Virus record (IMG/VR): IMGVR_UViG_3300032270_001162
Coordinates: 1-34,027 of that record
Source of the DNA: a virus
Taxonomy: Duplodnaviria > Caudoviricetes
Strand: one strand, 5' to 3'
Length of the DNA: 34,027 bases
Shown piece by piece: positions 29,845 through 34,027 of this stretch. The notes under the pieces were generated by a model. It was given only the letters and a program-made list of their open reading frames with translations, did not search any database and had not been told where the DNA came from. The number at the start of each line of letters is the position of its first letter. Within the stretch, counting starts at the first letter, position 1. The translations under genes and the position numbers were made by a program.

Positions 29845-30030
29845 ATAAGGTATTGTACTTTACTTTTTTCAAAATTATATAGTATTTTGAGGTTTTGGAG
29901 AATCTTTGTGGGTTTTGGAGGATCTTTGTGGGGCGCGGAATTTTTTGTGGAGAGTGATATATAGAGGTCGATCTGGGTCGTTTATAGATTGGAAGGGACC
30001 CATGGGCTTAAGGCGCCGACCCCCCCGGAA

Positions 30031-30088
30031 CCATAAGGACTGCAAATACGAACGAATGGACCGATAAGGAGTGCTGATACGAACGAAT
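30031..30088. repeat. Imperfect direct repeat, 2 copies
   Basis: CCATAAGGACTGCAAATACGAACGAAT followed by CCGATAAGGAGTGCTGATACGAACGAAT. Confidence 0.7.
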
Positions 30089-30134
30089 AGGGGCGCTAAG
30101 TATAAACAACTGCGCCCCACTAACTAACACTAAC

Positions 30135-30464
30135 TCAACTAAAGTAAGTGCCTACGATTACAGTGCCATCGTAGCAATACTTTATCAGAACTCCCGAAAA
30201 ATAGGAGTCTGAAGCATACCCATTCCACCTCTTTTTGTCGAAAGGTGAATCATAATTAATCACCATAAAGTCTGCGACAGAATACCAAACACCCCGATAC
30301 TTGAAGAACTCAGTTTCATCGAACTCATCGGCAGTAAGGTAATCAAACTGTTGGCGCAGTTTACTATACAAACTGCTGGTGTCGTGATAACCGAAACCGG
30401 GCAACCATTGCCCCATAGTGCATTCTCTGGGAGCGTAATTAGACTTGATTGTGAGATTTTCCAT
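30135..30464 (-). CDS. Hypothetical early phage protein (109 aa)
   Basis: Aromatic-rich ORF (FFKYRGVWYSVADFM...WNGYASDSYFSGVLIKY) with a CA-rich leader. Confidence 0.8.
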   Translation of the reverse strand: MENLTIKSNYAPRECTMGQWLPGFGYHDTSSLYSKLRQQFDYLTADEFDETEFFKYRGVWYSVADFMVINYDSPFDKKRWNGYASDSYFSGVLIKYCYDGTVIVGTYFS

Positions 30465-30495
30465 GGTAGGATTGTGATGGGAAAGTGTAGAGAAT

Positions 30496-30516
30496 AGGGG
30501 ATGGATTGCATCCCCT
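30496..30516 (-). terminator. GC-rich intergenic hairpin (terminator or processing site)
   Basis: AGGGGATG-GATTG-CATCCCCT (plus-strand reading), 10 nt after a stop codon; same loop as the 32386 hairpin; weak U-tract. Confidence 0.5.
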
Positions 30517-30526
30517 TAAGTGTAGA

Positions 30527-30772
30527 TCAGTGGAAGGAATCGTAGGAGGTTTGAGGTGTTGGATCAAACCCATCGATTGCGACATTAACCGCAGCGGATG
30601 GTGACAATCCCTCTAGGTAGGATTCCAGCAGGGAATCTAATGCCCAACCGGCATCTGGGATTCCCAGTGCCCAGATCCCCATAGGGTGGTCCAGTTGGTA
30701 GGCATGGGCGGCATCCCACCAAGCACAGAAAGCGGGAGAGTCGAAGCAATTATCAGCGGTGAGAGCAGGCAT
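30527..30772 (-). CDS. Hypothetical acidic protein (81 aa; start revised to ATG 30772)
   Basis: MPALTADNCF... follows the CA-rich leader AAACACACCACTGAC and a TAGGAT -10 box. Confidence 0.7.
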   Translation of the reverse strand: MPALTADNCFDSPAFCAWWDAAHAYQLDHPMGIWALGIPDAGWALDSLLESYLEGLSPSAAVNVAIDGFDPTPQTSYDSFH

Positions 30773-30874
30773 GTCAGTGGTGTGTTTGACCCCCAAATCC
30801 TACATCACCGGGAACCCTGACGGAGGGTTCAAACCTTAAGAGAATCTGGAGAGTCTCAGTTACTATAAAGAACT

Positions 30875-30918
30875 AAAACAACACTGAATAATAACAATTA
30901 AACAACACTGAATAATAA
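30875..30918. repeat. 19-bp direct repeat x2
   Basis: AAACAACACTGAATAATAA at 30875 and 30900. Confidence 0.8.
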
Positions 30919-30937
30919 GAATAATAAACTCCAAAAC

Positions 30938-31080
30938 TATAAAGAATTAGACAGGACTGAATGTAAAGAATAAACCACACCACTGACAATAAGTTACATT
31001 CAATCCTGAGTAATTCTTTATAATCAAGAAAAAGTATAAAGAATTAAGAACTAGGTGTGATTCATTCTTAATTCTTTATA
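30938..31080. repeat. Two adjacent long inverted repeats that share TATAAAGAATTA arms
   Basis: Imperfect 29-bp arms at 30938-30966 and 30994-31022; perfect 16-bp arms at 31035-31050 and 31065-31080. Confidence 0.85.
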
Positions 31081-31089
31081 TCTTACACT

Positions 31090-31248
31090 TCATACTTGTT
31101 CTTCATTCATTACACTATGCATGTGCATCTTATTAATAATAGTGTGACATGTATCCGCCACGCTATCATCATCTGTGCATTGCATGTGCATAACTAACGC
31201 ATCATAGATTGCGTCCTGTTCGTGTGAATTGAGTGCGAGCATGTTCAT
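31090..31248 (-). CDS. Small hypothetical protein (52 aa)
   Basis: Manual translation MNMLALNSHEQDAIYDALVMHMQCTDDDSVADTCHTIINKMHMHSVMNEEQV; CA-rich leader; same strand as its neighbours. Confidence 0.55.
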   Translation of the reverse strand: MNMLALNSHEQDAIYDALVMHMQCTDDDSVADTCHTIINKMHMHSVMNEEQV

Positions 31249-31308
31249 AACTGCGAATGCCTGTTAGTGTGTGTGAGAATGTGTGCAGATGCCTGCGAAT
31301 GCCTGTTA

Positions 31309-31398
31309 ATGTGTGCGCATCTCGACGAGTTATGTGTGCGCATCTCGACGAGTTATGTGTGCGCATCTCGACGAGTTATGTGTGCGCATCTCGACGAG
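31309..31398. repeat. 23-bp tandem repeat x4 (ATGTGTGCGCATCTCGACGAGTT)
   Basis: Three perfect copies plus a 21-bp fourth, with no spacers. Confidence 0.95.
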
Positions 31399-31401
31399 AT
31401 T

Positions 31402-31569
31402 TTAATAATGATGCCGACTCATTGTACAGTTGGGATCATTGTACCAATCAGAATCCTCATAAGATTCTGTTACTTTAGGTGCCATCCGAAGCATTAGATC
31501 ATCGGATAATTTGCACATTCCAGTTGTAACTAACTGGAGGATTTCATCGGGTGTTAGAAAGGTTTCCAT
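31402..31569 (-). CDS. Small hypothetical protein (55 aa)
   Basis: Manual translation METFLTPDEILQLVTTGMCKLSDDLMLRMAPKVTESYEDSDWYNDPNCTMSRHHY; starts 2 nt after the upstream stop. Confidence 0.7.
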   Translation of the reverse strand: METFLTPDEILQLVTTGMCKLSDDLMLRMAPKVTESYEDSDWYNDPNCTMSRHHY

Positions 31570-31571
31570 GA

Positions 31572-31823
31572 TCAGATCATCTCAATTAGGTGGAGAATAG
31601 ATGTAACTTGAACCGGTGTTTGGTAGGTTAAAGGATCCTCCATCATAATACCACCGGGGCGAATTACCATAACCTCAAATGTATCCTGGTCGATGATACC
31701 GTAGAGACCGGAATCTTCAGGACCCGATACAACTGAGACTGCCCAACCATTGGGGAAAGTGTGACGTGCCTTAGTGCCACCCTTGATAGCGTGATCTGAG
31801 AAAGTGAGAGAGGAGAAGTTCAT
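31572..31823 (-). CDS. Conserved phage hypothetical protein (83 aa)
   Basis: The FPNGWAVSVV...GLYG...FEV pattern is seen in small early phage proteins; has its own promoter and CA-rich leader. Confidence 0.8.
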   Translation of the reverse strand: MNFSSLTFSDHAIKGGTKARHTFPNGWAVSVVSGPEDSGLYGIIDQDTFEVMVIRPGGIMMEDPLTYQTPVQVTSILHLIEMI

Positions 31824-31893
31824 CGGAGCGGTGTGGTGTGAACTGAGAGAATCCTAGCATGGATTGGGGGGCATCTGCGCCCCCCTGGGAGAA

Positions 31894-32079
31894 TCAATAA
31901 CCTAACCAGGTTAGCAGTTCGCCAGTATCGACGCGGAAGGGTTTGGTTCCGTATTCTGTGCAGAAGTCTTCCCAGACCCCATGATCCTTAGCAGTCTGGC
32001 AAGCAGTAGACCAGCGGATGGTTCCGTTGTTTGGATCGGTGCAGGCGCTGAGCAGTTCGGGGAAAGTGGAGGATGCCAT
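31894..32079 (-). CDS. Small hypothetical protein (61 aa; start revised to ATG 32079)
   Basis: MASSTFPELL...VDTGELLTWLGY. The track's start at 32118 lies inside the promoter. Confidence 0.75.
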   Translation of the reverse strand: MASSTFPELLSACTDPNNGTIRWSTACQTAKDHGVWEDFCTEYGTKPFRVDTGELLTWLGY

Positions 32080-32105
32080 GGGGTGGTGTGGTTTGAACTG
32101 ATGCC

Positions 32106-32134
32106 AGTATGGTCCCAAACGGTGCCCAGGTCAA
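32106..32134 (-). promoter_or_regulatory. Sigma70-type early promoter TTGACC-N17-CATACT
   Basis: Correct spacing; followed by a leader ending AAACCACACCACCCC-ATG. Confidence 0.7.
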
Positions 32135-32290
32135 CCCTCCAAACCATAAGCATTGGTGATCAATCAAAGGGTTGCCAAGGGGTCCGGGTCCCGTGCTAGG
32201 ATGAAGGCAGAATCTATTTTTTGGGATGTGCCAATTTTTGAGGTGTCCACTGCTGGGCGATTATGGGTCCGGCGGTGCTGTAGGATAAGG

Positions 32291-32371
32291 GGACAATCAG
32301 CAAAGACAGCAGTGGGGTAACTGCTTGATCAATCCATCGCCACCGAACCTGCGCTCAAATAATTGTAACAA
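32291..32371 (+). ncRNA. Candidate structured small RNA, copy 1
   Basis: 65/81 ungapped identity to 33796-33876; stem AGCAGT/ACTGCT with loop GGGGTA; TAGGAT -10-like box at 32281-32286. Confidence 0.6.
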
Positions 32372-32382
32372 ATGAGTATAAA

Positions 32383-32408
32383 GAAAGGGGGCGGATTGTG
32401 CCCCCTTA
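32383..32408 (-). terminator. Rho-independent terminator
   Basis: G/C-run stem-loop (loop CAATC) followed by TTTCTTT on the minus strand, just after the stop at 32417. Confidence 0.75.
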
Positions 32409-32416
32409 AAGTATAC

Positions 32417-33097
32417 TCAACCGATGATTGCGTTCACCTTTGCTTTCTTAGGAGAATGTGCAGGGAATGCTATCACAAACTCACGCTTTGCTAATTGACA
32501 CAAACCGCAGGTGGCGCATGTTACCTTACCTGGAAAAAGTGCAGCGGGGCAGGTAACAACTTTCCGACCGTTAGTTGTTGTAAAGAACCGGCGGGATTCT
32601 TCAGAGTTAACAACTGCCATAGCGGGGATGTTATGCTCAGTCATCACTTTGTCCGCTTCGTCTACACTTTCTGTAGATGCGTTAACAGTAAACCCTAGGG
32701 CGTTACTATTCTGCAGGCAAATAACATTGTGATCGTTCAGAATGTGATGCGAATAGGTGAAACCTTTCCGCCCTTTGTTTGCACTAATTAACTGCTTGAG
32801 TTGAATATAATCAATGTTTCCGTCATTGTGAGGCAAATCGCCAGCAGTATTGTGGCGCCAAAGTACACCAAGGGGAACAATCTTGCGGAGTTGTAACAGA
32901 AACTCACTCCATGAAATACCTTTAGTTCCCTTGTTAAGTTGTGCCCACTGCATCCATTCTCTACCTTGTTTGGCATAGCATTCGCCACCAATAAAAGGGC
33001 AGGTTGGGGGGCAGGATGTGCCATCGGTGCGAGTGGTCGTGATGGGTCCGGTTTTGCCGTTGCCAGAGCGAGCGGTGATGGTGAGAGAGTAAACCAT
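32417..33097 (-). CDS. Cys-rich putative Fe-S protein (GP88/DUF7227-like, radical-SAM-like motif)
   Basis: N.KTG, SCPPTCPFIGGECYA (CX3CX6C), RHNTAGD, GFTYSH, NASTES and C-terminal CPA...TCATCGLC...FPAH. Confidence 0.7.
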   Translation of the reverse strand: MVYSLTITARSGNGKTGPITTTRTDGTSCPPTCPFIGGECYAKQGREWMQWAQLNKGTKGISWSEFLLQLRKIVPLGVLWRHNTAGDLPHNDGNIDYIQLKQLISANKGRKGFTYSHHILNDHNVICLQNSNALGFTVNASTESVDEADKVMTEHNIPAMAVVNSEESRRFFTTTNGRKVVTCPAALFPGKVTCATCGLCQLAKREFVIAFPAHSPKKAKVNAIIG

Positions 33098-33175
33098 GAT
33101 CGGTGTCGGTGGTGGTGACCCCTAAAGAATAGCACGGATGGGGGGCAATGGTGCCCCCCGACTGATCAGCGTTGC

Positions 33176-33652
33176 TTATGCAACCCAGAGTTTCTCCACG
33201 ATCATACGCTCTACCATAGACTTGGCAAATTCGCCACAATCGTCACACTCTGTAACAGCAGCGATCTTATACTTAAGACCGCCTTTGTTGACCTTGAAAG
33301 TATAACGCCAGATTGCACTAGTAGTCAACAACAACTGGCGGCGCTTTGCCCATCCTTTTGTGGGAGCATCTACAAGGTCGTGGTATAGACGAATCATGGC
33401 GCGGTAGTCGTTACCTTGGTGGCGCAACTTGTTCAGTTCCGATACAAACAACTTGCCACCTTTAATGTGTGACTCTAAAGTTGCACCGAAAAACTCAACA
33501 AACTTAACCGACTTTTCCTCTTGATTGAGAACAACTGGCGCAACTTTTTGCACCATAACATCAGAAGCAATGCCCAACATTTGAGCAAGTTCTAACATTG
33601 TGCCTTCAACTTGGTTGCCGTTGATAACAAGTTGGATGGTGGCGTTAGTCAT
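33176..33652 (-). CDS. Hypothetical protein (158 aa; start revised to ATG 33652)
   Basis: MTNATIQLVING... follows the CA-rich leader CCCACCACCCCAGACAA. The track's extension runs through promoter and RNA-like elements. Confidence 0.7.
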   Translation of the reverse strand: MTNATIQLVINGNQVEGTMLELAQMLGIASDVMVQKVAPVVLNQEEKSVKFVEFFGATLESHIKGGKLFVSELNKLRHQGNDYRAMIRLYHDLVDAPTKGWAKRRQLLLTTSAIWRYTFKVNKGGLKYKIAAVTECDDCGEFAKSMVERMIVEKLWVA

Positions 33653-33795
33653 TTGTCTGGGGTGGTGGGCGGCGTCAGTGGTGCGCCGTTGAATGAATGA
33701 TGCCACACCGGAACCGACCAGATCCAGCGACCTTGTGCCAGTGGTGAAACTGGTTTTTGCTGGCGGTTTTTGATCGGTGCCGTGGTATCCTAATA

Positions 33796-33876
33796 GGACA
33801 ACCAGCACCAACGGCAGAAGGGTATCTGCCTGATCAATACATCGCCACCGCCCCTGCCATAAAATAATTATAACAA
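33796..33876 (+). ncRNA. Candidate structured small RNA, copy 2
   Basis: Stem GGCAGA/TCTGCC with loop AGGGTA, compensatory relative to copy 1; TGGTATCCT extended -10-like box upstream. Confidence 0.6.
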
Positions 33877-33882
33877 TACATT

Positions 33883-34006
33883 AAGAAAAGTGGACCAGGC
33901 ACCACCCCGATCCACAGCAACCCACTCACCTATGCTAGAATTATCTGTTGTCTTGCTCGCAGGGTGACTTTAACATTCAGCGACGGCAAACCCCTTCCGT
34001 CTTTAT
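33883..34006 (-). ncRNA. Candidate ~120-nt small RNA with its own promoter and terminator
   Basis: Extended -10 TGGTACAAT (34013-34021); stems GACGG/CCGTC and TCACC/GGTGA; 10-bp terminator stem with loop GTGGTG followed by TTTTCTT; no convincing ORF. Confidence 0.55.
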
Positions 34007-34027
34007 CTTATAATTGTACCATCCAAT

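Follow-up and report, generated by a model that had tools for sequence, protein, structure and literature searches.

Silencing of CA-rich translation enhancers by a small RNA has a precedent in GcvB (PMC3879156), described as a host-encoded, Hfq-dependent sRNA (PMC4474525). Here, we analyzed a long hairpin in a viral DNA fragment of 34,027 nucleotides (the window). Like GcvB, it sets one G/U-rich seed against CA-rich elements upstream of many start codons, but its seed is the loop of one long hairpin that is phage-borne and would be aimed at the phage's own genes, and Rfam reveals no sequence relation between the two. Since cyanobacterial Hfq is reported not to bind RNA (PMC10989914), GcvB can serve as an analogy only. 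The seed complementarity to several leaders described in the initial annotation stood; the hairpin is no member of the GcvB family proper, given the missing Rfam match and the reported behavior of cyanobacterial Hfq.

The c4 antisense RNA of phages P1 and P7 and the CI RNA of P4 are structured phage RNAs that are processed from a longer transcript and pair with repeated phage leader sites, each serving one immunity operon of a temperate phage. Our hairpin shares with them the design of a phage-encoded structured RNA that would pair through unpaired regions with repeated leader sites, but the targets predicted for it lie in many distinct early transcription units of a T4-like phage, and it has no Rfam match. 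In the Yfr1, Yfr10 and Yfr2 RNAs, a short invariant motif is unpaired between stems, that of Yfr10 in a loop on a stem (PMC2190773, PMC6778093). The hairpin likewise holds its motif unpaired, and eight of its seed nucleotides complement CACACCAC of Yfr1-like loci; however, motif, structure and polarity are different, the Yfr RNAs are host-encoded, and the hairpin again matches no Rfam family. The ACUCCUCACAC motif of Yfr1/Yfr2 and its complement are absent from the loop, which pairs solely with the CACACCAC part of the Yfr1-like loci.

Among T4-type phages, RB49 and phi1 carry PeSL cassettes that are bounded by promoters and stem-loops and exchanged between strains (PMC2839356). The hairpin also lies in an early region of exchanged cassettes, but PeSLs are multicopy promoter-terminator units, whereas the hairpin is single copy, long and AU-rich, with a large conserved loop. 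CfrI, the non-coding antisense RNA of the lytic T4-like cyanophage S-PM2, is cis-encoded at psbA (PMC12197685); an RNA from our hairpin would be a further antisense non-coding RNA of such a phage, but would act in trans on many leaders. The non-coding RNAs listed for T4-like cyanophages in PMC10665884 and PMC12197685 are glnA, manA, PhotoRC-II, wcaG, abiF and CfrI, and none of these is the hairpin. A supplement of PMC12197685 further tabulates 38 undescribed phage sRNAs. In the main texts of the openly accessible literature searched, neither the hairpin nor any phage RNA directed against leaders common to early genes was described, in agreement with the initial annotation, which had recognized no described system. 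The hairpin is a real, conserved and uncatalogued element with a specific predicted target set.

The hairpin and its homologues

The window represents 34 kb from a T4-like cyanophage of freshwater, with the Synechococcus phages S-SRM01 and DSL-LC03 (Kyanoviridae) as its closest annotated records, and the sequencing runs that contain its sequence are mostly freshwater metagenomes. Positions 30000-34027 carry small genes of unknown function on the minus strand, with a G+C content above that of the adjoining structural genes, and most of these genes possess their own -10-like box and a short CA-rich leader. From this layout, we infer that the block consists of early genes. The hairpin sits close to the downstream end of the block (Table 1), and the gene following it is not the same between phages; the block as a whole probably travels as one unit. 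In strain contigs devoid of the 83-aa gene, the joint falls at the CA-rich leader (31569 to 31830), which shows that cassettes are exchanged at leaders.

Table 1. Positions of the hairpin, its flanking elements, its predicted partners and the second unit in the window
Feature	Position	Strand	Details
Long hairpin	30938..31022	-	29-bp stem, 27-nt loop, 2x2 pyrimidine internal loop, U.G pair
Conserved loop seed GUCAGUGGUGUGGUUU (complement of AAACCACACCACUGAC)	30972..30987	-	99% column conservation
16-bp inverted repeat of the TATAAAGAAT motif, upstream of the hairpin	31035..31080		Kept in some homologues, half-copies in others
AT-rich degenerate repeats, downstream of the hairpin	30869..30933		Copy number varies between phages
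Candidate sigma-70-type promoter ATCACA-17-TATACT	31033..31061	-	Consensus match alone; ends 10 nt before the stem
Predicted target: leader and first base of the 81-aa gene directly downstream	30772..30784	-	13-nt match, -26.8 kcal/mol
Predicted target: leader of the 83-aa gene	31833..31840	-	8-nt match
Predicted target: leader of the 61-aa gene	32083..32094	-	12-nt match, ends 3 nt before ATG
Small stem-loop CGGCG-CACCACUGA-CGCCG	33670..33688	-	Leader of the 158-aa gene; conserved; predicted loop-loop partner
Second non-coding unit	33886..34018	-	-10-like TACAAT, about 120 nt, terminator-like hairpin 33915-33890, GUGGUG loop

Folding confirmed the 29-bp arms around a loop that had been described from the sequence. 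The two 29-nt arms (30938-30966 and 30994-31022) are 90% complementary, with 31010-31009 opposite 30950-30951 in the internal loop, and the minus strand folds with -38.2 kcal/mol (z -6.38), a value equaled by none of 200 shuffles; the plus strand reaches -28.6 kcal/mol (z -6.68). A search of Rfam 15 with the hairpin returned no family, the best match being mir-2763 with 26.8 bits against a gathering threshold of 50, so that a microRNA identity was rejected on its score, and three related loci gave no family either.

The homologues fall into two stem types that have little sequence in common, although both place a pyrimidine mismatch 15-17 bp from the loop. In a MAFFT alignment, 7 of the 13 inner pairs have changed on both sides and 97% of the cells are paired, with the second stem type partly out of register and the sequences related to each other. 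Paired changes in long inverted repeats can also come from template switching without selection and, for these three reasons, the paired stem changes demonstrate a kept symmetry more than a proven RNA pairing. Non-Watson-Crick pairs, read on the gene strand, are G.U in 61 cells versus A.C in 10, corresponding to 12 versus 5 distinct events when grouped by hand (one-sided p 0.07), and the stem energy is better on the gene strand in 24 of 38 variants and on the other strand in 14. G.T pairs are also favored in single-stranded DNA hairpins; the strand bias leans weakly to the gene strand and does not separate an RNA from single-stranded DNA.

When IMG/VR was scanned with the loop, 56 loci were identified, 29 of them with the same hairpin, and a wider loop pattern identified 72, with the stem present in 62; after metagenome contigs had been added, the distinct stem-loop variants numbered 64 in all. 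To avoid circularity, loop-independent searches were run with the first stem, the second stem and a neighboring protein. With the first stem as the sole query, the exact 15-nt seed was recovered in all 34 loci. The second stem pattern yielded 11 loci, six by chance and five true, the seed being exact in four of the latter and carrying a 1-nt deletion in the fifth. The search via the neighboring 57-aa gene, for which 80 loci were fetched and 27 with less than 1200 nt upstream were dropped, revealed the hairpin in 14 of the 53 left, some of which were too short to reach it, and 11 of these 14 hairpins have the exact seed. Among the variants from these loop-independent searches (29 distinct sequences), column conservation is 99% in the seed and 69% in the 5' part of the loop. 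Weak self-pairing, a point against the anti-leader reading, is predicted for the CAG/UUG part of the seed, which is mostly unpaired, and being mostly unpaired and conserved is what is expected of an sRNA seed in a GcvB-like mode. The loop is thus kept on changing stems, and its sequence is complementary to the carriers' commonest leader words (see below), which supports the interpretation of the initial annotation in part.

A covariance model detected one locus per sequence searched, as befits a single-copy element, and no distant member beyond the known ones in 77 sources. In S-SRM01, DSL-LC03 and two complete IMG/VR genomes (4/4), it returned nothing better than an E value of 0.26. At about the hairpin's place, S-SRM01 (L001, 14594-15031) has an HNH endonuclease gene on the opposite strand. 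A close relative (L108, 4200-7200) carries matching leaders, the partner stem-loop and the second unit; in the stretch read, it has neither the long hairpin nor the box arrays, probably owing to a deletion. Both S-SRM01 and L108 possess matching leaders and the partner stem-loop and lack the hairpin, which speaks against the anti-leader reading. Carriers are mixed with non-carriers on a tree of the neighboring 252-aa protein (56 rows; 14 changes versus 16.7 when shuffled), which argues that the hairpin is accessory. Among 50,697 phage records, no cultured carrier was found, all 15 matches being at chance level, and no other long anti-leader hairpin was convincing in 28 loci without the element.

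Complementarity of the loop to early leaders

The 13-, 12- and 10-nt matches reported in the initial annotation for the 30772, 32079 and 33652 leaders are all exact. The first (30784-30772) includes the A of ATG and the last (33683-33674) lies 21 nt upstream of its ATG; a fourth match, absent from that annotation, covers 8 nt at 31840-31833. For eight leaders chosen by eye from the early block, of which three match just 4-5 nt, the summed longest match is 60 (counting one leader, placed 2 nt off, at 7 nt rather than 10), versus 38.0 for mono- and 41.8 for dinucleotide-shuffled loops (0/3000 each), and the summed duplex energy is -139 versus -78 and -92 (0/1000 each). In the comparison with shuffled controls that had been proposed as a check, the real loop thus prevailed. 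The remaining 13 minus-strand ORFs of at least 70 aa in the window have a loop match of at most 6 nt.

The same relation was observed among the carriers, in which leaders were taken from mechanical ORF calls (first ATG, at least 40 codons) around 207 redundant loci. A seed match of at least 8 nt occurs in 142 of 562 distinct leaders, compared to 13 of 558 control windows in coding sequence and 6 of 584 upstream, and none of 300 shuffled seeds performed as well as the real one. In related loci without the hairpin (n=36), 11 of 312 leaders match, 30 of 300 shuffles are equally good and other words dominate. The top three leader 8-mers in carriers (ACCACACC, CACACCAC and CCACACCA) are all complements of the seed, the matching words end mostly 0-13 nt ahead of the start codon, and leader matches cover all 16 seed positions. 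In three long contigs, the matches near the hairpin lie mostly directly before start codons on the gene strand. Complementarity of one seed to several translation-initiation regions beyond chance is likewise a mark of a GcvB-like mode.

If, as is probable, the early block passes between phages in one piece, the leaders come along with the hairpin, and the association between them would amount to few independent events. It is seen at the lineage level, between carriers and non-carriers. At the level of single bases, the variable base 5' of the seed (U, G or A) does not predict the base after CCACTGAC in the leaders, and phages with a G-to-A change in the seed show no matching leader change. As regards the covariation of loop and leaders suggested as a check, an association is seen between lineages, and the base-level result is negative on the few variable sites available. 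As for host leaders, counts of the motif plus ATG are low (0-52 per genome) and near those of controls in 81 cyanobacterial genomes, and most of 30 such sites read in two genomes, neither from a likely host, lie inside or antisense to genes.

The 10-nt match in the 33652 leader corresponds to the top of the stem-loop at 33688-33670, near the predicted 5' end of the message of the 158-aa gene, and this top is the exact complement of UCAGUGGUG. Where the hairpin is present, 22 of 26 distinct contexts also have the partner stem-loop, compared to 2 of 7 where the hairpin is absent, and five loci contain a compensatory G-C to A-U variant. The predicted duplex of hairpin and partner comprises 13 bp with -23.6, compared to -8.9 for the partner's own stem. 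Judged by complementarity, the GUCAGUGGUG half of the seed is explained by the partner stem-loop, and the other half by the common leaders. The 158-aa gene itself (33179-33652, minus strand) encodes an invariant CxxCG motif and has 110 homologues, all unnamed; a model of the protein (pLDDT 79) gave no PDB match at E 0.001 and no Atlas match, and in BFVD its S-SRM01 homologue was the only match.

A predicted antisense RNA for early messages

To our knowledge, how T4-like cyanophages turn their early genes down is not settled. We give about even weight to the proposal that a gene-strand antisense RNA of freshwater T4-like cyanophages damps early translation. Its transcription would start at a -10 element close by, or the RNA would arise when the last early operon is read through. 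At 38-62 nt ahead of the seed, 47 of 83 contexts have a -10-like hexamer, versus 17 of 84 on the other strand; homologues have no fixed promoter position, and no canonical terminator was called at the hairpin. In one metatranscriptome (X20), contigs of a relative lie on both flanks and none covers about 30905-31125, which is spanned by a DNA run (X4); coming from one study, these contigs indicate neither presence nor absence of a hairpin transcript.

Host RNase III may trim the RNA at the conserved internal mismatch, which we take to resemble T7 processing sites. RNase III is reported in all sequenced cyanobacteria (PMC10989914). The long stem would keep the loop of roughly 27 nt open, such that Hfq would not be needed. 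Within the seed, the GUGUGGUU half would then find its partners in ACCACACC-type leaders, for the most part 0-13 nt ahead of AUG; the partners of the GUCAGUGGUG half would be CACCACUGAC leaders and the stem-loop at 33670-33688. Such pairing would mask the site where ribosomes land on these leaders, in which no Shine-Dalgarno motif is apparent, and the accumulating RNA would act as negative feedback or as a timer for the early messages as a group, although the outcome may be message protection rather than repression.

A more elaborate version, which we consider possible but rather doubtful, would have T4-like cyanophages time their early program through anti-leader RNAs. All early messages would share a leader tag, and one hairpin RNA would turn them down together with no need for Hfq or a repressor protein; its first docking point would be the leader stem-loop, reached by a loop-loop contact, and this hairpin would be one of several independently evolved carriers of such a switch. 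If true, early-gene turn-down would have a simple and testable explanation in one RNA that matches a leader tag common to the messages, and this would be a rare case of a lytic phage that controls its own regulon in trans by base pairing. The hairpin family is a ready test system, with a defined seed, targets of 8-13 nt and a specific partner stem-loop, and S-SRM01 offers a cultured relative in which the targets are present and the hairpin is absent.

Flanking arrays, the second unit and other readings of the hairpin

The hairpin is surrounded by TATAAAGAAT boxes that point inward from both sides, up to 12 of them among 71 contexts, with means of 1.8 forward and 1.2 reverse boxes upstream and 0.2 and 3.3 downstream, and its right arm resembles one unit of the 30869-30933 repeats. 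The outer stem of the main stem type is composed of such boxes. These inverted arrays suggest DNA-binding sites, and an alternative reading, which we regard as unlikely, is that the locus acts at the level of DNA as a replication origin or a packaging or terminus signal, where a protein occupies the boxes about a central cruciform, the loop being a protein-binding box that early promoters share. In line with this notion, box numbers on both sides are variable, the region is AT-rich and the element is single copy per genome; repeated boxes around an AT-rich core, the layout of an iteron-type origin, are indeed present. However, a DNA box has no need to be inverted into an unpaired loop, and the second stem type maintains its pairing without boxes in the stem. 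The distribution of the element is not that of an essential origin: S-SRM01, DSL-LC03 and the two complete IMG/VR genomes are without it, and it is scattered on the neighbor-gene tree. For an iteron-type origin in particular, no initiator family was detected among 10 neighboring proteins, and the four complete related genomes lack the element.

The second unit retains a GUGGUG loop in 13 of 13 close variants and in every variant seen, S-SRM01 included, and has no Rfam match. The loop persists in L115, L118, L121, L150 and L167, where CACCAC leaders are few or absent, which indicates that such loops can be kept for another reason, such as a protein or a host RNA; the unit was accordingly dropped as independent support for an anti-leader role. 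The hairpin's G/U-rich loop could similarly be read, as an RNA, by a host or phage protein, serving as a decoy or a processing signal, in which case its leader match would be a by-product of CA-rich leaders. We consider this quite improbable. The constancy of GUGGUG in the terminator loops of other-leader lineages would fit it, as would the lack of fine covariation between loop and leaders, but it does not explain why every seed position is leader-matched, why the top leader 8-mers are the seed's complement where composition-matched shuffles never did as well (0/300), or why the ACUGAC half matches the top of a conserved stem-loop.

Pairing with a host RNA was also considered, in that the hairpin might sponge the sRNA Yfr1 in the fashion of Yfr2, which blocks Yfr1 by pairing (PMC6778093). 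Cyanobacterial Yfr1-like loci do present CACACCAC unpaired and could form 9 bp with the loop (-15.4 kcal/mol). This duplex is weaker than those with phage leaders (-20.7 to -26.8), leaves GUCA unexplained and misses the UCCU core required for Yfr1 targeting; moreover, the motif was a built-in requirement of the pattern used to find Yfr1-like loci, and none of 5 genomes tried yielded the Yfr1 of the actual host. We therefore rate a sponge as very unlikely.

The initial annotation had left open transcription from the plus strand, by which the hairpin RNA would present the leader motif and so act as a decoy, here taken as one for a factor that binds leaders. We hold this to be a shade less credible than the sponge. 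The plus strand folds as well (see above), and TATAAAGA boxes on the downstream side, which differ by a single base from the TATAAATA preceding a late gene of the window, point into the hairpin; on that strand, however, the G.U pairs turn into A.C mismatches and -10-like hexamers are scarce. Between the two strands, the distinct pair events weakly favor the gene strand over the decoy. Least probable of all is a guide or relic of cassette shuffling, with leaders as the recombination joints of early cassettes and the loop as a captured inverted leader: the contigs joined at the leader motif, the differing gene after the hairpin and the shuffling of T4-type genomes by PeSL cassettes (PMC2839356) would agree with it, but 99% seed identity on two different stems is not expected of a relic, the element is single copy, and no recombinase was seen nearby.

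Several further repeats were observed in the early non-coding DNA of these phages. Upstream of the hairpin, four tandem 23-nt repeats with CTCGACGAG-like words occupy 31309-31421, and the words recur in non-coding stretches of S-SRM01. Two non-coding 86-nt units, at 32286-32371 and 33791-33876, are 79% identical. Finally, clusters of TTTTCCACA / TGTGGAAAA boxes, which presumably resemble DnaA boxes, lie in the early non-coding region of DSL-LC03 (L002, 8320-8790) and of L108 (about 2520-2600).
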